Virus genome (UHGV): UHGV-2031204
Direction: 5' to 3' (one strand)
DNA: 64,000 nt
Source: a virus
Made by a program: the position numbers and the translations under genes
Notes under the pieces: model-generated
The model's input: only the letters and a program-made list of their open reading frames with translations
Database searches by the model: none
Told to the model about the DNA's origin: nothing
In this document: in pieces, positions 3,241-59,752 of the stretch
How the letters are laid out: each line of letters starts with the position of its first letter
Numbering within the stretch: the first letter of the stretch is position 1

Positions 3241-3283
3241 TTACCCTACTCCCGAAGGAGTAGGGTAACGTTTATTTTTTTAC
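3241..3283. terminator. bidirectional intrinsic terminator between convergent genes
   Basis: Stem-loop ttaccctactcccgaaggagtagggtaa with a T-run on the + side; lies between the + gene ending 3235 and the - gene ending 3280. Near-identical copy at 8599-8626. Confidence 0.7.
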
Positions 3284-8598: not shown

Positions 8599-8642
8599 TT
8601 ACCCTACTCCCGGAGGAGTAGGGTAACTTTTATTATTTTTTC
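8599..8642. terminator. bidirectional intrinsic terminator (copy of the 3241 hairpin)
   Basis: ttaccctactcccggaggagtagggtaa plus T-run; differs from the 3241 copy by one loop base; sits between convergent genes. Confidence 0.7.
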
Positions 8643-15611: not shown

Positions 15612-16883
15612 ATGGCAAATTTCGCAAAAACTCGCGCCGCTCGTGAATCGATGGAAGCGGCCGATGAAGTAATCGACGGTATCAGCAACGTTGAACCGGC
15701 AGAAGAGAACCTGGACGTCCAACTTGCGGACGTAGCATCTATCGACGGTCAGCTCGATCAGCTGGAAACCGACGGTGAAACCCTGGCTGCCGATACCGAG
15801 CGTACTGAAGACGCTATCGAACAGGCGGAAGAAGCCGTTGCTAACGGTGAAGAAATGCCGGAAGAAGCGGTTGCCCTGCACGAAGTGGCACAGGAATCCA
15901 TCGCACGTCGTTGGTGCCTGGAACGTACTAAACTGGCACGCGAATCCTATCGCCGTGGTCGTGGTATGACTGCTGCTGCCCAGGAAGGTTGGAAAGAAAC
16001 CCTGAAAGATCTTTACGATCGTTTCATTCAGTTCTGTAAAGAAGTGATTGCGAAGATCAAAGACCTGAAACTGAAATATTTCAACGTCGGTAAGACCGCA
16101 CAGAAACGTGCGAAGAAATATCAGGAAATGCTGCGTAAGCTGGGCAAACAGAAGAAAGATGAGATCTCTGGTGGCTTTATCACCAAGCTGTCTATCGAAG
16201 GTAAATTCGATGCCGCTGGCTCTATCGCTATTGCGAAAGAAGTTACCGCAGGTAAAGCTAAAGGTTCCATCGCTGTTCTGGAAAAACAAGCTGGTGAAGC
16301 TGTGACTGCCGTTACCAAAGGTGACGATGACGCATTCAAAGCAATGCGTGGCGATCAGCCGGTAGAACTGTTTGGTAAAGCTGCTTCTAAACTGCACACT
16401 CTGCCGAACTTTGAAAAAGGTGATGCGTCTAAACTCCTGGCTCTGCCGGGCAACGCTTACGTTCAGGCTGGTACTAAAGAACTGGCTGGCGGCCACAAGT
16501 TCACCGCAATTGCTTTCATGAGCACCGGTGACGCTTCTGACGATAAAGACGTGAAAACTCCGTCTGTTTCTGAAATGGCTGGTGCTGCTTCTGCTCTGGA
16601 AGCGATCGGTAAAGGTTTCGAAGCCGTACTGAAAGATTTCCGTGCTTACGATTCTGAAATCGTGAAGCTGCAACAGGCTGCTGAGAATGCTGCTAAGGCG
16701 CTGAACAACGAAAAAGACGATAGCAAGTGGGATGGCCTGCGTAACGCACGTCAAGCTGCCGATTGGTCTGTTAAGAACTACCAGACCCTGAACCGCGCAG
16801 TTAGCTATGTTGCTAACACCGTTATTAGCGGTCTGAATGGCTACCTGGGTGCTGGTATCGGTGCTTACGAAAAATCTAAATAA
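15612..16883 (+). CDS. abundant protein, paralog A of a tandem pair (probable virion component)
   Basis: 423 aa; strongly host-optimised codons (CGT, CTG, GGT, AAA, GAA); acidic N-terminal region; shares MANF..ARESME start, KLGKQKKDEISGGFI core and GYLGAGIGAYEKSK C-terminus with the next gene. Confidence 0.9.
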   Translation: MANFAKTRAARESMEAADEVIDGISNVEPAEENLDVQLADVASIDGQLDQLETDGETLAADTERTEDAIEQAEEAVANGEEMPEEAVALHEVAQESIARRWCLERTKLARESYRRGRGMTAAAQEGWKETLKDLYDRFIQFCKEVIAKIKDLKLKYFNVGKTAQKRAKKYQEMLRKLGKQKKDEISGGFITKLSIEGKFDAAGSIAIAKEVTAGKAKGSIAVLEKQAGEAVTAVTKGDDDAFKAMRGDQPVELFGKAASKLHTLPNFEKGDASKLLALPGNAYVQAGTKELAGGHKFTAIAFMSTGDASDDKDVKTPSVSEMAGAASALEAIGKGFEAVLKDFRAYDSEIVKLQQAAENAAKALNNEKDDSKWDGLRNARQAADWSVKNYQTLNRAVSYVANTVISGLNGYLGAGIGAYEKSK

Positions 16884-16965: not shown

Positions 16966-18231
16966 ATGGCGAATTTCTACAAAAACAAAATTGCTCGTGA
17001 GTCTATGGAGTCTACTTCTACTGTAGTTCCAGACGGCATCGAACTGCCAGCAGAATCCGTAGAAGGCACTCTGGCCGATATCGAGCATGACACCAAACCG
17101 ATCGAAGCTCTGGACGCTGACGCTGAACTGCTGGCAGAAGACGGCGACGAAACTGACGCTCAGCTGGATGTTCTGGATGAAGCTCAGGCTGCTGCTGACG
17201 GTGAAGGTGCAGGCGAAGACGGTGAAGAACCGATGGATGCCGAAGAAGATATGCCGGACGACGCTGCGACTGCGCTGGACGTTGCTCAGGAATCTATCCG
17301 TTCTCGTTGGAACTTCGAACACCGTTCTTCTGTTGCACACGAATCCTACGGTTCTCGTAACCGTCGTCAGGTTGCTCGTGAATCCCTGTGGGAAGACATC
17401 AAAGCCTTCCTGGGCCGTATTCTCGATTGGCTGAAAGAACAAGGCCGCAAACTGAAAGATCGCTGGCTGAAATTCCACAACCAGGGTAAATCTATTCAGG
17501 CACGTGCTAAGAAATACGATGAAGTTATTCGTAAGCTTGGCAAACAGAAGAAAGATGAGATCTCTGGTGGCTTTATCAAGTCTCTGTCTATCGACGGCAA
17601 GTTCGTCGGTGATAATATTCCGAAACTGAAAGGTATCCTTAACCAGGTCTCCTCGTTCTATAGCGCTAAGATGCCTGCCATGGCCGCTAAAGCTGCTGAA
17701 GTGGTTTCCGATGTTACCAAAGGTAATGGCGTTAAAGTTGAAAAACTGAAAGCCGACTTTACCGAACTGTCCAAACAAGACAGTCTCCAAAACTTCAAGC
17801 TCGGTAACATGGCGGTGAAAACCGAGTATGACAACGAAGGCGGCTTCAGCTCCACCTTTGTTGAAGCTGAAAACAGCGTTGAAACTAGCGTGAAAACTCC
17901 GTCTGTTGGCGAACTGGCCAAAATCAATGCTCTCTTCAACGAAGTGGGTAAACAGATTGAGAAGAACGTTCAGGATTATCGTAAAGTCGAAAGCGCGCGG
18001 AAAACCTTTGAAGATAATATCGATAAGCTCCTGAAAGAAGTCGATAAAGTTAAGATCGACGAAAAACCGGAACTGACCGAAGGTGTACGTGCTGCCCGTC
18101 GTTTCATCACCAGCGTTAACCAGGGTCTGTCTCTGGGTGAGAAGGTTATTGCTTCTACTCAGAAACACCTGGCCGGTGGTCTGAACGGTTACCTGAGTGC
18201 CGGTATCGGCGCTTACGAAAAATCTAAATAA
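16966..18231 (+). CDS. abundant protein, paralog B of a tandem pair (probable virion component)
   Basis: 421 aa; same codon bias and shared blocks as 15612-16883, including a long near-identical nucleotide stretch around 17531-17606. Confidence 0.9.
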   Translation: MANFYKNKIARESMESTSTVVPDGIELPAESVEGTLADIEHDTKPIEALDADAELLAEDGDETDAQLDVLDEAQAAADGEGAGEDGEEPMDAEEDMPDDAATALDVAQESIRSRWNFEHRSSVAHESYGSRNRRQVARESLWEDIKAFLGRILDWLKEQGRKLKDRWLKFHNQGKSIQARAKKYDEVIRKLGKQKKDEISGGFIKSLSIDGKFVGDNIPKLKGILNQVSSFYSAKMPAMAAKAAEVVSDVTKGNGVKVEKLKADFTELSKQDSLQNFKLGNMAVKTEYDNEGGFSSTFVEAENSVETSVKTPSVGELAKINALFNEVGKQIEKNVQDYRKVESARKTFEDNIDKLLKEVDKVKIDEKPELTEGVRAARRFITSVNQGLSLGEKVIASTQKHLAGGLNGYLSAGIGAYEKSK

Positions 18232-18297: not shown

Positions 18298-18310
18298 TTA
18301 AAATAATTTT

Positions 18311-18334
18311 CAGATATATATTACCTAGGTGAGA
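18311..18334 (+). promoter_or_regulatory. conserved promoter-like motif, copy 1 (cagatatatattacctaggtgaga)
   Basis: Identical 24-mer recurs at 26567 and, with 2 mismatches, at 54090; always just after a terminator and about 50 nt before a start codon; followed by an inverted repeat gagattac/gtaatctc. Confidence 0.55.
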
Positions 18335-26447: not shown

Positions 26448-26566
26448 TCCTAAACGACACGCAGAAGTCATTTAACCGTTAAGACGACTAATTACCCTTT
26501 AAAAAGAAAATTGCGTCAGAATGCGTTTTAGAGCGTTCTAGAGGGTATATGGATTCAAAAAGATTT

Positions 26567-26590
26567 CAGATATATATTACCTAGGTGAGA
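26567..26590 (+). promoter_or_regulatory. conserved promoter-like motif, copy 2 (cagatatatattacctaggtgaga)
   Basis: Exact copy of the 18311 24-mer, about 45 nt upstream of the small ORF at 26637. Confidence 0.55.
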
Positions 26591-26636: not shown

Positions 26637-26780
26637 ATGATTTCTGTAAAACACAAAAAAGCTATCTTCGCTGTTGTTATCGCTGTTGTTCTGGGTTGCC
26701 TGTATCTGGACATCGACAAAGGCTACGACACTTGCATCGACAACGGTAATTCCGTTGCACAGTGCACTGGTCGTGGTTAA
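26637..26780 (+). CDS. small membrane protein (47 aa, one predicted TM helix, Cys-containing C-terminus)
   Basis: Below the ORF-track size cutoff. RBS ttaggag before ATG; strongly optimised codons; hydrophobic AIFAVVIAVVLGCLYL; bracketed by promoter-like motif and terminator. Confidence 0.6.
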   Translation: MISVKHKKAIFAVVIAVVLGCLYLDIDKGYDTCIDNGNSVAQCTGRG

Positions 26781-26834: not shown

Positions 26835-27650
26835 ATGATTACCATTAAAGATTATTTTCCGCGTGGACTGAGCAATGAAAACTTCGTTCCAACTGAAGAC
26901 ATTGCCATCGTAACAGAGTCTAGTGATAAGTCTTTTAAACTCTACTTGAGTACGGCAGCAGGAAAATCCACTCTTATCCTTCGCGAACCTGAAGTGATAA
27001 GCATCTGCTCGTTTGGGGGTGGTGTAGAAGGAACGATTAATTGGTTGAAATCCAGAATGCATCGTTTGCTTATCGTGAACACCGATCCTGTGATTCGTTT
27101 ACAGCAATTGAAATCGTTGAATGAAGTTATCGTCGGATTATTGGAACATGAAACGTTCGGTAATGCAGCGATTGCGGAAGAGATTAAATCTGTAGAACTA
27201 ATCGAGTGGAGTGATATCGAATACGAACGTGCTGCGTTATTCGCAATGTACGGTGACGATAATCCTGTTGTGTTTGCACAAACATTAGATAACGTTACAG
27301 TAACAGCGCGCGTATTGTTTGGCTTACAGCGTGTTGAGTTTGAACTGAAACACGTTTATGTAAGTAATACTCCAGAGATGGTGGAAACGTTGACTCGTGC
27401 GTTCGCTTACCCGTTAGACGGAGAATGGGAACAGCAGATTAATGAAGCGTTAGGCGCGATGCTGTTCTTAGCAGGCACACTAAGGAAAGAAGAGAAATTA
27501 GAAGGTCGTGTTTATCCAGAATACGATTTTGTTTGTGAAGAATGTGGAGCACAGTATCAAATACGTGTTCCTTTAACCGGCCTGACAATCCCGAAAGCCA
27601 ACGTGCAATGTAAGGAATGTGGCCATGTTCAATACGTAGCGACTAAATAA
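26835..27650 (+). CDS. hypothetical protein with C-terminal zinc-ribbon-like Cys pairs
   Basis: 271-aa ORF with ggag RBS; C-terminus has CEECG...CKECG (two CxxC pairs). Confidence 0.8.
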   Translation: MITIKDYFPRGLSNENFVPTEDIAIVTESSDKSFKLYLSTAAGKSTLILREPEVISICSFGGGVEGTINWLKSRMHRLLIVNTDPVIRLQQLKSLNEVIVGLLEHETFGNAAIAEEIKSVELIEWSDIEYERAALFAMYGDDNPVVFAQTLDNVTVTARVLFGLQRVEFELKHVYVSNTPEMVETLTRAFAYPLDGEWEQQINEALGAMLFLAGTLRKEEKLEGRVYPEYDFVCEECGAQYQIRVPLTGLTIPKANVQCKECGHVQYVATK

Positions 27651-27656
27651 AAGCAA

Positions 27657-27699
27657 CCCCTAATCCCGAAAAGGATTAGGGGTACACTTTATTTATTTT
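27657..27699 (+). terminator. intrinsic terminator
   Basis: cccctaatcccgaaaaggattagggg followed by a T-rich tract. Confidence 0.7.
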
Positions 27700-27947
27700 C
27701 GCAAATTCAACAACTTGGATTAAATAAAAGGCTTAAAGCCACTAACAATCATCGAGTACAGATCTTCACCGAAAGGAGAAGTAACTACTAAATAAAATAA
27801 AGGGGTGTGACAGCACCCCTTATCAAAGCTTTAACTTTTCGAAAAGAGAAGTTAAAGCAGGGTACGCTGTAGCACCAGCGTACCCTTTACAGCACCACCA
27901 CGTTTCCGTAGTGGATTTCTTTAATCACCCTACAAAGAGGGCTTACC

Positions 27948-28121
27948 ATGAACAATGGTTACTACTTTACTGACAAAATGCTTGCAGAACAGAGTGCAGC
28001 AAAGACCAATTTACAGCAACGTATCTACAAGTATAGTCAGCTCGGCATGGATAAACGGTTAAAACCGTCTACCAACCGTTTCACGCAGATATTCACCGAA
28101 AAGAGGAGTGAACACTACTAA
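27948..28121 (+). CDS. small protein (57 aa), cassette family member 1
   Basis: Below the ORF-track cutoff. ATG at 27948 preceded by aaagaggg; translation MNNGYYFTDKMLAEQSAAKTNLQQRIYKYSQLGMDKRLKPSTNRFTQIFTEKRSEHY; shares Q-R-I/M-x-x-Y-x-x-LG with the next small ORF. Confidence 0.5.
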   Translation: MNNGYYFTDKMLAEQSAAKTNLQQRIYKYSQLGMDKRLKPSTNRFTQIFTEKRSEHY

Positions 28122-28345
28122 CAAATAAAGAGGAGGCGTGTCAGCGCCTCCCCTCCTCGTACAGTAACCTGCCGAGATGGTGGTCGTAGGTATAATAAAA
28201 AGGGGTGCACCACCACCCCTTTTCTTAGCTTTAACTTTTCCGAAGAGAAGTTAAAGCAGTAGAGACTGTTCCATCAGTCTCTACTGTACGGTGACAACGC
28301 ATAAAGTTGTTGACGTTTTTACAACATTACAAAAGGTAATGAAAA

Positions 28346-28507
28346 ATGAACGAATATCAAATACAGATGTTCAATACCGCGATGCGAAATCGTGAAAAAC
28401 AAATTCAGTTTAACCAACGCATGGACGAATATGTTCGTCTCGGCCTCGTTGCGGCACCGAAAACGGTTAACAATCACAATGTTCACCAACCACCTGTAAG
28501 GAGATAA
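28346..28507 (+). CDS. small protein (53 aa), cassette family member 2
   Basis: Below the ORF-track cutoff. Translation MNEYQIQMFNTAMRNREKQIQFNQRMDEYVRLGLVAAPKTVNNHNVHQPPVRR; same cassette context as 27948-28121. Confidence 0.5.
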   Translation: MNEYQIQMFNTAMRNREKQIQFNQRMDEYVRLGLVAAPKTVNNHNVHQPPVRR

Positions 28508-28650
28508 GTTACTAACTAATAAAGGGGGTGGCAGCAACACCCCCTACTTAGTTCAGTAGTTGTTTCCCGTTCATAATTAATAGCCTTCTGTTTTTTTTTG
28601 TTTTTCGAGACGCATAAGGGGTCATAAGGGGGAGCCGAAGCTCCCCAGAC

Positions 28651-30213
28651 TCAAAAGAGTTCGTCACCCATGCCGCCGGTAAATACGTTAATCGACGAGG
28701 CTGTTACAGTTTCTTCTTTATCACAATCCCATGGCAAAATGCCAACATCACGGAAAGGTATTACAGTATAATGATAAGCTTCTTTGGTATCAATAATGGT
28801 ACGGTGTTTACCGCGTTGTACTTCTAAATAGCTGTGTCCGCTGACGACACGTTTGTTAAAATACATCTCACCGTCAGCTTCGTTGTCTAAGCTAGAGCAG
28901 TTGTCGTAAAGACCACGACCAGGTAAGCTCTTACAGAAACTTGCTGGGTCGAGTGCTTTTAATTTTTTGCCTTCTGGTGAGATTTGGTGTGGTGCTAAGA
29001 GGAAACCACGATTACGTACCACTTGGATGTTTCGCGCGATACGATAAATTTCTTTAATGTCACTACCCGCAATACCGTTACCGTGCCCTGCTTTGCTGAT
29101 AGTACCGAAATAGTCTCCGCGTATTCCAGCTACATGATAACCTCGACGTTTTAGATCTAAAATCAAATCATTCAAATAGTGAATTTTAAAATCGGAGTTT
29201 GTGTGTTTTTGGAAAATATACTCCCAACCGTTTGCCCGCATTTTACTACAGAGGTAATCTGACATTTGTGCATTGTGTAGCGCTTTTTCTTCGTCAGTTG
29301 CCGTTTCAGGTGCAACCATTACCGGAGCTGTACCTTCAAAGTGTCCGTAAAGTGCTTGATACGCGTAAGCCAAGTTAACATCTAATTCGTTTTCTAAACT
29401 TAAATCCAGAATAACCGGTTGTAAGTCACCTTTAACATTTGCCATCACCTTTTCTGGGGTGTTGAATACAGGAATGCTAATAGAGAGCAATAAACTGAAT
29501 AATGACTTACAGTTAAAGGGTAGTGCGGGCATTAGCCAGAGTTCTTCGGTGATCCCTTTGTTACAGCCAAGCATTTGGTTAATTGCTTTCCACCCCGTAC
29601 GTAACCCATTACCTGCCGCTTTCTTACTGATAGAGTCGAATACATGTACGAAGGGTGCTTTATTGTCAGTAATCAATTCCCCTACCAGAGAAGGAATCTT
29701 ATTATGAGAGCGTTCACTGAACGTGGATAAGGTATCCTTAAGGTCGTTGAGCGCCGTTTGTAAATCAACACGCGTTTCAGTGCCGTTCAGTGCGCCTAAC
29801 GTACGACCCAATTTTTGTTTCAGTTGTACGCCTTGAATAGCTTGACGTAACTGAAAGTAGTATTGTGCTACTTGGCGATTAAGATGCTCGATGCGTGCTT
29901 CTGGTTCTTCTGGAATATCATCTTCCAGGAATTTGGTAATCGTATCGTATAGAGGACGTATTTGCGTAGTGGCCAGTTTCAAACGTTTCATGACGTTTGT
30001 GTGGTCGTAAGGCATACCGCCGTCTATGATGGATGTGATGATATCCTTGATTTCGACGAGGGCGGCACGTTCGTCACCTTCTTCTGCGTAATCAGGAAGC
30101 TTAGCCTCTAACAGCACTTTTCTTATGATGTCGTGGTCCTTTTCAGGATCGGTCAGAAGACTTTCAGCGTATAATGTGGCTAAGGCGGTTATCAACATCA
30201 TTTTGTTATTCAT
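28651..30213 (-). CDS. hypothetical protein (520 aa)
   Basis: Long minus-strand ORF; no recognisable catalytic motif found by eye. Confidence 0.8.
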   Translation of the reverse strand: MNNKMMLITALATLYAESLLTDPEKDHDIIRKVLLEAKLPDYAEEGDERAALVEIKDIITSIIDGGMPYDHTNVMKRLKLATTQIRPLYDTITKFLEDDIPEEPEARIEHLNRQVAQYYFQLRQAIQGVQLKQKLGRTLGALNGTETRVDLQTALNDLKDTLSTFSERSHNKIPSLVGELITDNKAPFVHVFDSISKKAAGNGLRTGWKAINQMLGCNKGITEELWLMPALPFNCKSLFSLLLSISIPVFNTPEKVMANVKGDLQPVILDLSLENELDVNLAYAYQALYGHFEGTAPVMVAPETATDEEKALHNAQMSDYLCSKMRANGWEYIFQKHTNSDFKIHYLNDLILDLKRRGYHVAGIRGDYFGTISKAGHGNGIAGSDIKEIYRIARNIQVVRNRGFLLAPHQISPEGKKLKALDPASFCKSLPGRGLYDNCSSLDNEADGEMYFNKRVVSGHSYLEVQRGKHRTIIDTKEAYHYTVIPFRDVGILPWDCDKEETVTASSINVFTGGMGDELF

Positions 30214-53365: not shown

Positions 53366-53395
53366 AAGGGGTGTTTTTTACACCCCTTTTATCTA
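53366..53395 (+). terminator. intrinsic terminator (short T-tract)
   Basis: aaggggtgttttttacacccctt followed by ttttatct. Confidence 0.55.
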
Positions 53396-54050: not shown

Positions 54051-54088
54051 GGTACCACCCAACGGTGGTACCTATATTTTATTTTTTC
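54051..54088 (+). terminator. intrinsic terminator
   Basis: ggtaccacccaacggtggtacc followed by a T-rich tract. Confidence 0.75.
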
Positions 54089-54089
54089 T

Positions 54090-54113
54090 CAGATATATTT
54101 TACTTAGGTGAGA
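54090..54113 (+). promoter_or_regulatory. conserved promoter-like motif, copy 3 (cagatatattttacttaggtgaga)
   Basis: Matches the 18311/26567 24-mer with 2 mismatches; directly after a terminator; followed by inverted repeat agagtta/taactct; about 50 nt before the HTH gene start. Confidence 0.5.
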
Positions 54114-58665: not shown

Positions 58666-58706
58666 CCCCTCTCTCCGTTTGGAGAGAGGGAGTATTTATT
58701 TTTACG
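58666..58706 (+). terminator. intrinsic terminator
   Basis: cccctctctccgtttggagagaggg followed by a T-rich tract; identical stem-loop recurs at 59713. Confidence 0.75.
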
Positions 58707-59712: not shown

Positions 59713-59752
59713 CCCCTCTCTCCGTTTGGAGAGAGGGTACTTTTATTTTTAT
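59713..59752 (+). terminator. intrinsic terminator (copy of the 58666 hairpin)
   Basis: cccctctctccgtttggagagaggg followed by a T-rich tract. Confidence 0.75.

Follow-up and report, generated by a model that had tools for sequence, protein, structure and literature searches.

Shuffled small-gene cassettes in an SPN3US-like jumbo phage carry covarying hairpins that may bound transcripts and serve recombination

Why would a phage set some of its smallest genes among hairpins whose sequences change from copy to copy while their pairing is kept? The question is raised by a tandem array of small-gene cassettes at positions 27656-28545 of a 64,000-nucleotide (nt) stretch of the virus genome UHGV-2031204 (hereafter the window, to which all positions refer). 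An earlier note on this DNA had described open reading frames (ORFs) of 53-57 codons separated by hairpins, had read the covariation between hairpin copies as selection on RNA structure, and had named RNA processing sites, hairpin promoters and small structured RNAs paired with small proteins as possible roles. Our analysis supports the tandem array, and comparison with relatives shows that it occupies a hyperplastic slot in which a conserved multi-hairpin block recombines. The explanation that we favor, with modest confidence, is that the hairpins of this hypervariable slot are transcript boundary elements (terminators or stabilizers) that double as recombination substrates, a jumbo-phage counterpart of the promoter-early stem-loop (PeSL) cassettes of T4-like phages.

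The array holds two complete cassettes and the remnants of two others, with units spaced 400 nt apart. Each cassette has a leader containing three hairpins (H2, H3, and H4), followed by a Shine-Dalgarno site, a gene of 52-61 codons, and a G-rich 3' hairpin; all of the elements that follow are on the plus strand. At the left edge lies T0 (27656-27683), the terminator hairpin of the preceding 271-aa gene, which has T-rich tails on both strands and is followed by TTTATTTATTTTC (27688-27700), a sequence similar to the 5' arm of H2 in other genera. Next is the 3' remnant of an ORF_B-type cassette (27711-27791), which aligns with the 3' end of the intact ORF_B of a relative (L008), and H1 (27800-27821), the G-rich, terminator-like 3' hairpin of the preceding cassette, whose stem type also ends a gene at 53366-53388. 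The first complete cassette comprises H2 copy 1 (27828-27858), a 13-bp AT-rich hairpin with a conserved U.G pair and a GAAAA loop; H3 copy 1 (27859-27886), an 11-bp hairpin abutting H2; a cassette-specific H4 (27895-27914), predicted by folding and conserved in relatives, with a compensated change and a GAAA/TTTC loop inversion; ORF1 (27948-28121, 57 aa); and a hairpin after it, T1 (28132-28151). An ORF_C-type 3' remnant (28157-28189), identical to the last codons of the intact ORF_C in L006, and H1' (28198-28223), a G-rich, bidirectional-terminator-like hairpin flanked by A4/T4, lead into the second cassette, with H2 copy 2 (28228-28257, nearly identical to copy 1), H3 copy 2 (28258-28285), an H4 that was likewise predicted by folding and is kept in L004, L006, and L008 (28288-28316), ORF2 (28346-28507, 53 aa), and T2 (28523-28545), a G-rich 3' hairpin of the same type as H1. 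The coordinates given in the earlier note (hairpins at 27802-27819 and 28202-28219, H2, H3 at 27860-27885 and 28259-28284, and the ORFs) are all correct. Its single truncated unit corresponds to the remnant at about 27711-27791, which is indeed present but belongs to a different paralogue, ORF_B, and the second remnant, at 28157-28189, had been missed. A U-tract follows T0 and H1' on the plus strand; H1 and T2 have weak tails (T4-5 in some relatives), and H2 and H3 have none. H1, T0, and T2 are of the same kind as the ordinary gene-end hairpins of this phage in the window.

The small ORFs are real genes under purifying selection, as the earlier note had supposed: the ratio of nonsynonymous to synonymous polymorphism (pN/pS) in the annotated frame is 0.16 for ORF1, 0.18 for ORF_B, and 0.31 for ORF_C, against 0.8-1.7 in the other frames. 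ORF1 and ORF2 share the core QR(I/M)xxYxxLG and belong to a family of small helical proteins; for ORF2, AlphaFold2 and the family alignment predict one helix (residues 3-31) and a disordered basic tail, with a mean predicted local distance difference test score (pLDDT) of 75. A joint profile search recovers 69 clusters as a single family; none of them is annotated, and each lies on a contig of 220-250 kb or on a fragment of one. PHROG 18219 contains the small proteins gp194 and gp195 of SPN3US; the window ORFs have no match to any PHROG at E <= 1, yet the joint profile recovers both groups, which occupy the same slot and are bridged by ORF_A. Sequence searches of Pfam, PHROGs, and the PDB with the small proteins assigned no function and gave no match to a nucleic-acid-binding domain. 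Searches with tblastn were almost blind to these proteins, probably because of their Q-rich low complexity, a locus search with the SPN3US subgroup returned only loci already known, and nothing relevant was found in the literature on SPN3US gp71-73. We also considered whether the conserved 3' ends of the cassettes are a nucleotide-level motif read in different frames; their conservation is explained by the protein alignment, which has I/V-F-x-E/K-K/R tails. Several alleles among the relatives of ORF1, ORF2, and ORF_A (P0012, P0025, P0036, and P0047) have lost a stop or shifted frame and read into the downstream hairpins, and others (P0046, P0052, P0053, and P0057) are fused to leader stubs, all of which is consistent with rapid cassette turnover.

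How quickly the slot changes was seen by setting the window beside three IMG/VR contigs whose helicases are 97-99% identical and 28 contigs fetched through homologous small proteins. No two of the 32 slots have the same sequence, and their lengths run from 686 to 1347 nt. Among them the five paralogous cassette types (A, B, 1, C, and 2) are arranged in at least 12 orders, including A-2, A-1, C, B-C, C-1, C-2, A-B-1, A-B-2, A-C-1, B-C-1, and longer ones, in a sample of architectures that is biased by the retrieval of loci through proteins B, C, and 1. The order in the window is (B remnant)-1-(C remnant)-2, and the slots cannot be explained by simple decay of one ancestral order because ORF1 precedes the C remnant here and follows ORF_C elsewhere. 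Some proteins are chimeric (P0018 is A joined to the tail of C, and P0059 is B joined to the tail of ORF1), and in L004 ORF_A is linked straight to ORF2 through a single block. Breakpoints are scattered, some of them inside ORFs. The longest sequence common to all cassettes is the H1-H2-H3 block, which recurs before cassettes in 62 copies across the 32 slots. Cassettes have thus been lost, duplicated, reordered, and recombined, with crossovers both in paralogous coding sequence and inside H2 and H3. As for the origin of these genomes, many contigs of the clade among the sources of L032-L058, of about 215-227 kb, lie in assemblies labelled Escherichia coli, Shigella, or Salmonella, and phages of this clade have evidently often been sequenced together with enterobacterial isolates.

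The hairpins themselves are dense and stable, to a degree far beyond chance. The window has 33 perfect hairpins whose stems reach at least 8 bp, six of them within the array's 900 nt, and the folding energies of the 150-nt modules are -65.1 and -61.8 kcal/mol (dinucleotide shuffles place them at z = -9.9 and -9.5). Between H3 copies 1 and 2, five of the ten core stem positions have changed on both sides without a single mispair. Since the two window copies alone are too few to measure covariation, we used MAFFT to align the 36 distinct sequences among 62 H2-H3 copies. Across the distinct copies 94.7% of the cells are paired, whereas sliding the partners by 1-3 columns leaves 43-54%, and 86 cells show two-sided change, against 27.8 +/- 4.1 in column shuffles (0 of 500 shuffles reach 86). 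Pairs with two-sided change number 9 of 24 overall, 7 of 11 in H3 and two in H2, whose 13 bp include the one U.G, universal among the aligned copies. MAFFT mis-registers the 3' arm of H3 in eight rows with 5-nt loops, so these figures are conservative. H2 and H3 are separated by 0 nt in 36 of 36 distinct copies, giving 24 stacked pairs. That pairing is kept through two-sided changes, which the earlier note had read from two copies, therefore holds well above both controls.

Other features of the leaders bear on whether this structure is of use to the phage. Outside the loops, they are conserved far above the synonymous sites of adjacent genes. The H4 of the C cassette has two mismatches in L050, where ORF_C is deleted, and is intact in the genomes that keep ORF_C, which suggests that a leader keeps its structure only as long as it has its gene. 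In whole contigs of about 220 kb the H2 pattern occurs at this slot only, which rules out H2 as a genome-wide terminator motif; the only copies that a covariance model of H2-H3 picks out of the 64-kb window are the two in the array (79.5 and 78.6 bits), and its matches at the homologous slot in other genera are weak. Pairing of H2 is not perfect everywhere: in 14 of the 62 copies a 5' arm of type a faces a 3' arm of type b, leaving a central A.A mismatch, and these look like products of crossovers inside the hairpin.

The strand on which the structure acts can be read from its wobble pairs, since a plus-strand A.C would be a G.U on the minus strand. When distinct non-Watson-Crick states were counted again with the register taken into account, 11 were plus-strand G.U and 3 were A.C, an asymmetry with a one-sided binomial p of about 0.03 among events that are not all independent. 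The G.U variants are the frequent ones, and arm chimeras of H3 occur only in the G.U form. The wobble states thus favor plus-strand RNA, in line with the selection on RNA structure proposed earlier. The loops tell a different story. In the window (27656-28545) and the slots of L004, L006, L008, and L031-L058, the loops of T0, H1, both H3 types, and H4 appear as exact reverse complements among close relatives, in nine pairs that include CGAAAA/TTTTCG (T0), TGACAG/CTGTCA, TAGCAC/GTGCTA, TTGTAG/CTACAA, TATAGG/CCTATA, and GAAA/TTTC. The function of most hairpins must therefore be independent of loop sequence, and the arms must often template one another, so some of the apparently compensatory change may be mutational. 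The loop of H2 (GAAA, CAAA, CGAA, or GAAAA) is the only one that is never inverted, and H2 is therefore under an orientation constraint that the other hairpins lack. The earlier step from covariation to selection thus stands in part: pairing is kept and the wobble bias points to plus-strand RNA, but with loops inverting so often, a share of the signal may be palindrome-templated mutation.

The surroundings of the slot suggest when it is transcribed. We place the window in an SPN3US-like jumbo phage, of the phiKZ-related group, because its DnaB-like replicative helicase (520 aa, 28651-30213, minus strand), which is convergent with the array, is 83-85% identical in amino acid sequence to those of phiEaH2, Asesino, and SPN3US; the relatives' copies match family PF20307. 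The left border of the slot is the 271-aa gene of the ORF list (26835-27650, plus strand), which holds the same position in all relatives and whose product has a zinc-ribbon-like C-terminus (weak Zn_ribbon matches, under the Pfam cut-off). The right border is a hairpin with a minus-strand UUCG loop just past the helicase stop (28629-28646, minus strand). The transcription unit whose end is the array begins with an early-promoter-like motif, TTTCAGATATATATTACCTAGGTGAGA (26564-26590, plus strand). This 27-nt motif has a further copy at 18308-18334 and a near-identical one at 54087-54113 (plus strand); the three share an exact 13-mer (at 18312, 26568, and 54091), flanks that are identical or nearly so, and the consensus TTTCAGATATAT(A/T)TTAC(C/T)TAGGTGAGA, and each lies just 5' of a plus-strand gene. 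The motif is probably the early promoter of this phage's virion RNA polymerase: an AT-rich, highly conserved early promoter type has been reported in every jumbo phage of this kind, and the family encodes its own multisubunit RNA polymerases (PMC7598289). Because the motif at 26564-26590 fits this type, we infer that the array is the distal end of an early transcription unit. No copy of the motif lies inside the array, and the leaders have no convincing sigma-70-like site, only a weak 9/12 match that overlaps the start codon of ORF2. No Rfam family matches the window at gathering thresholds (in the region there are only sub-threshold, chance-level matches with E >= 0.1), scans for tRNA and tmRNA found no genes, and nucleotide searches of the region against a phage collection, in near and distant modes, gave no match.

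Several other observations concern the neighborhood and the hairpins of the window at large. After the early-promoter-like motif comes a 47-aa predicted membrane protein (26637-26780, plus strand) that ends in ..NGNSV.QCTGRG and keeps its position in all genera examined. Between the last cassette and the helicase hairpin, at 28590-28617, lie a T9-11 run and the block GACGCATAA, which recur at the same place in L001, L002, L003, and L025-L030 and are conserved across genera, even in phages without these small genes; the block's minus-strand sequence, TTATGCGTC, holds the TATG core of phiKZ late promoters, and a short minus-strand transcript could start there. Terminator hairpins are reused, identically or nearly so, at separate gene ends (3241-3268 and 8599-8626; 58667-58690 and 59714-59737), with TTACCCTACTCC..GGAGTAGGGTAA and CCCTCTCTCCgtttGGAGAGAGGG each present twice, and these too could be recombination substrates. 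Two adjacent plus-strand ORFs, at 15612-16883 (423 aa) and 16966-18231 (421 aa), are probably tandem paralogues and have similar hairpins, TGGGTGCTGgtatCGGTGCTTA and TGAGTGCCGgtatCGGCGCTTA, near their 3' ends. A replication origin at the AT palindrome beside the helicase gene was also considered and receives no support from GC skew.

These features can be assembled into a mechanism. In this SPN3US-like, nucleus-forming jumbo phage, the slot would be the last part of an early unit, and its hairpins would mark boundaries in the plus-strand transcript: read-through would be attenuated or terminated by the 3' hairpins, and the 5' H2-H3 stack would insulate and stabilize each small message, or mark it for processing, so that each tiny gene would become an autonomous expression unit. 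The H1-H2-H3 block would at the same time supply homology for unequal and inter-genome recombination, a role that we assign to it because it is the longest sequence common to all cassettes. Several observations sit uneasily with this account. Without plus-strand U-tracts, H2 and H3 are not canonical terminators, and with no promoter found in the leaders, expression would depend on read-through or on an unrecognized class of promoter. The confinement of H2 to this one place in the genome is not what one would expect of a generic regulatory signal and gives a hint of a role particular to this family, and the A.A mismatch in 14 of the 62 H2 copies means that perfect pairing is not essential. Arm-to-arm templating (quasi-palindrome correction) may create compensatory changes without selection, the wobble asymmetry and the sample of architectures have the limits given above, and H3 in other genera looks built for the minus strand.

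This last point leads to the first alternative. SPN3US has two homologous 48-aa genes, gp194 and gp195, in the same slot, and phiEaH2 and Asesino have no small genes there. A triplet of GC hairpin, AT-rich palindrome, and GC hairpin precedes the homologous small gene in three other genera: Seoulvirus (SPN3US, SPAsTU, and pEa_SNUABM_29), Wellingtonvirus-like phages (pEa_SNUABM_11 and L015), and Machinavirus (Huxley-like phages, pEa_SNUABM_42, pEa_SNUABM_10, and pSal-SNUABM-04). The stem sequences of the triplet are unrelated between genera, and the two H2 arms change together, in length as well as sequence (TTTATTTTC/GAAAATAAA, TTATTTTTC/GAAAAATAA, TTTATTTTTTC/GAAAAAATAAA, and TTTGTTTTCTTT/AAAGAAAATAAA). 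In these genera the module is mirror-symmetric: the UUCG loop is on the plus strand in H1 and on the minus strand in H3 (H1 loop ttcg and H3 loop cgaa in SPN3US, SPAsTU, pEa_SNUABM_29, L015, and pEa_SNUABM_11), H3 has its T-tail on the minus strand, each H2 arm is the phage's usual terminator tail (TTTATTTTC in the phages just named), and a plus-strand C.A in the H3 of Machinavirus is a U.G on the minus strand. The ancestral module, this suggests, was a pair of face-to-face terminators. In the window, H1 with the T-rich 5' arm of H2 would then end plus-strand transcripts, H3 with the complement of the A-rich arm would end minus-strand ones arriving from the helicase side, and H2 would pair as a side effect of having two U-tracts that face each other. 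In the window cassettes the 3' hairpins do have better T-tails on the minus strand, and the covariance model also matches a mirrored H2+H1 on the minus strand at 33-40 bits. Yet the face-to-face arrangement fits the window clade less well, and we think it unlikely there: the wobble states (11:3) point to the plus strand, the minus-strand tail GCTTTAACTTCTC is a poor U-tract, and the loop of H2 is fixed in one orientation. Independent tails need not co-vary in length and sequence between genera as the H2 arms do; the SPN3US-type palindrome occurs once per genome in SPN3US and Huxley, and other convergent junctions use single bidirectional hairpins; and it is hard to see what use a minus-strand terminator repeated before every cassette would have.

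If the hairpins do act in plus-strand RNA, they might be processed rather than serve as boundaries in themselves. In the early region of T7, hairpins between genes are processed by RNase III, and by analogy the stacked H2-H3 helix of about 24 bp could be cut to release monocistronic small mRNAs with protective terminal hairpins. The invariable 0-nt junction between H2 and H3, the wobble bias, and the conservation of the leaders outside the loops would all suit such a site, but the helix is nicked rather than continuous and has no internal-loop architecture like that of the T7 R sites, and we regard this as quite unlikely. More specific still, H2 (with H3) could serve in the autoregulation, localization, or export of these messages as a cis element to which the small basic helical proteins, or some other phage factor, bind. 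H2 is the most conserved element, is restricted to the array in genomes of about 220 kb, and has a fixed U.G and a never-inverting loop, and the window clade departs from SPN3US-like genera both in H2 and in the protein C-termini; the proteins, however, are predicted to be one helix and a disordered tail with no match to a nucleic-acid-binding domain, and ORF_A in L008 and L004 has no H2/H3 upstream, which leaves this idea very doubtful. The opposite extreme is that the hairpins have no function at all and are quasi-palindromes made and kept perfect by intrastrand template switching, with covariation of purely mutational origin. The nine reverse-complement loop pairs, with arms that often template one another, and the chimeric arms, which show recombination inside hairpins, are what such a process would leave behind. 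It seems to us decidedly improbable given the plus-strand wobble bias, the persistence of the triplet over four genera with unrelated stem sequences, leader conservation far above the synonymous divergence of adjacent genes, and the decay of H4 where its ORF is deleted (L050). Finally, the position of hairpins before each small gene superficially resembles integron attC recombination sites or the single-stranded hairpin promoters of N4, readings to which we give almost no weight. The ends of H2, GCTTTAAC...GTTAAAGC, recall the RYYYAAC/GTTRRRY cores of attC sites, a likeness that we take to be superficial. An attC site is an imperfect palindrome of about 57-141 nt with extrahelical bases, such cores, an IntI recombinase nearby, and a fixed crossover point; H2 is 30-31 nt long and fully paired, without extrahelical bases, SPN3US-type H2 has no core-like ends, and the breakpoints are scattered, including inside ORFs. 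An N4 promoter has a stem of 5-7 bp and a 3-nt loop of fixed sequence and is used by a single-subunit virion RNA polymerase. The stems here are 8-13 bp and the loops 4-7 nt, variable, and often inverted, and the phage family has multisubunit RNA polymerases and a linear early motif (PMC7598289). With these dimensions, and with the linear AT-rich early motif absent from the array, the hairpin promoters suggested in the earlier note can be set aside.

The account of the hairpins as transcript boundaries and recombination substrates has its closest known parallel in the PeSL cassettes of hyperplastic regions in T4-like phages (Arbiol et al. 2010, PMC2839356; Comeau et al. 2014, PMC4122927). These repeats combine terminator and promoter, lie on either side of small genes, and recombine, with one crossover mapped to the stem-loop's loop; the stem-loop is thought to attenuate upstream transcription, and a dual role with recombination has been proposed (PMC2839356, PMC4122927). 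In both systems the small, non-essential early genes of a variable region are separated by conserved composite stem-loop blocks of about 60-100 nt, and in both cassettes are inserted, deleted, and replaced between close relatives, with chimeric H2/H3 arms and at least 12 architectures in the case described here. The array block differs in having no sigma-70 or other recognizable promoter, in a phage family that does not use the host RNA polymerase; in having three or four hairpins, where PeSL has one; in being confined to one slot, where PeSL is spread over many regions; and in flanking paralogues of a single protein family rather than unrelated orphan genes (ORFans). Since the sigma-70 promoter that defines PeSL is absent, we do not claim membership.

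Other systems share parts of the arrangement. Like the T7 RNase III hairpins, those of the array are conserved intercistronic stem-loops between small early genes of a polycistronic early unit, although they form two short stacked hairpins where T7 has one long stem with an internal loop. Phage morons are likewise small accessory genes between conserved genes, with signals of their own on either side, and Erskinevirus relatives lack the whole unit described here; unlike morons, the array consists of tandem paralogues with conserved flanking repeats that apparently mediate their own turnover. The terminators of phiKZ-like phages, known from the transcriptomes of 201phi2-1 and phiKZ (PMC11512511), are also GC-rich gene-end hairpins with repeated sequences, some of them bidirectional, whereas H2 and H3 of the array lie in the leader of the next gene and H2 is AT-rich and unique to the array. 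In 201phi2-1 terminators are about twice as numerous as promoters and have conserved motifs (PMC11512511), an abundance in giant phages that is consistent with the hairpins acting as transcript boundaries.

Nucleus-forming jumbo phages transcribe with their own polymerases, and the regulation and exchange of their many small early genes are poorly known. The slot is a compact natural experiment on both, with five paralogous tiny genes in many arrangements, in near-identical phages, beside a covarying multi-hairpin block, and it suggests that the principle of T4-like phages, in which a regulatory cassette serves as a recombination handle, extends to a lineage that makes no use of host promoters. 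The widespread loop inversions are a caution against taking compensatory changes in palindromes as proof of selection on RNA. A more speculative prospect, to which we assign a small chance on the sequence comparisons, is that H2-H3 is a dedicated plus-strand RNA signal working with the adjacent small helical proteins as an autoregulatory or message-handling module. If so, RNA element and protein tail would have co-diversified between genera, and the module could control the stability, translation, or exit of early messages from the phage nucleus. H2-H3 and its small protein family are, in either case, defined elements in which roles in transcript boundaries, message stability, and host takeover may be sought.

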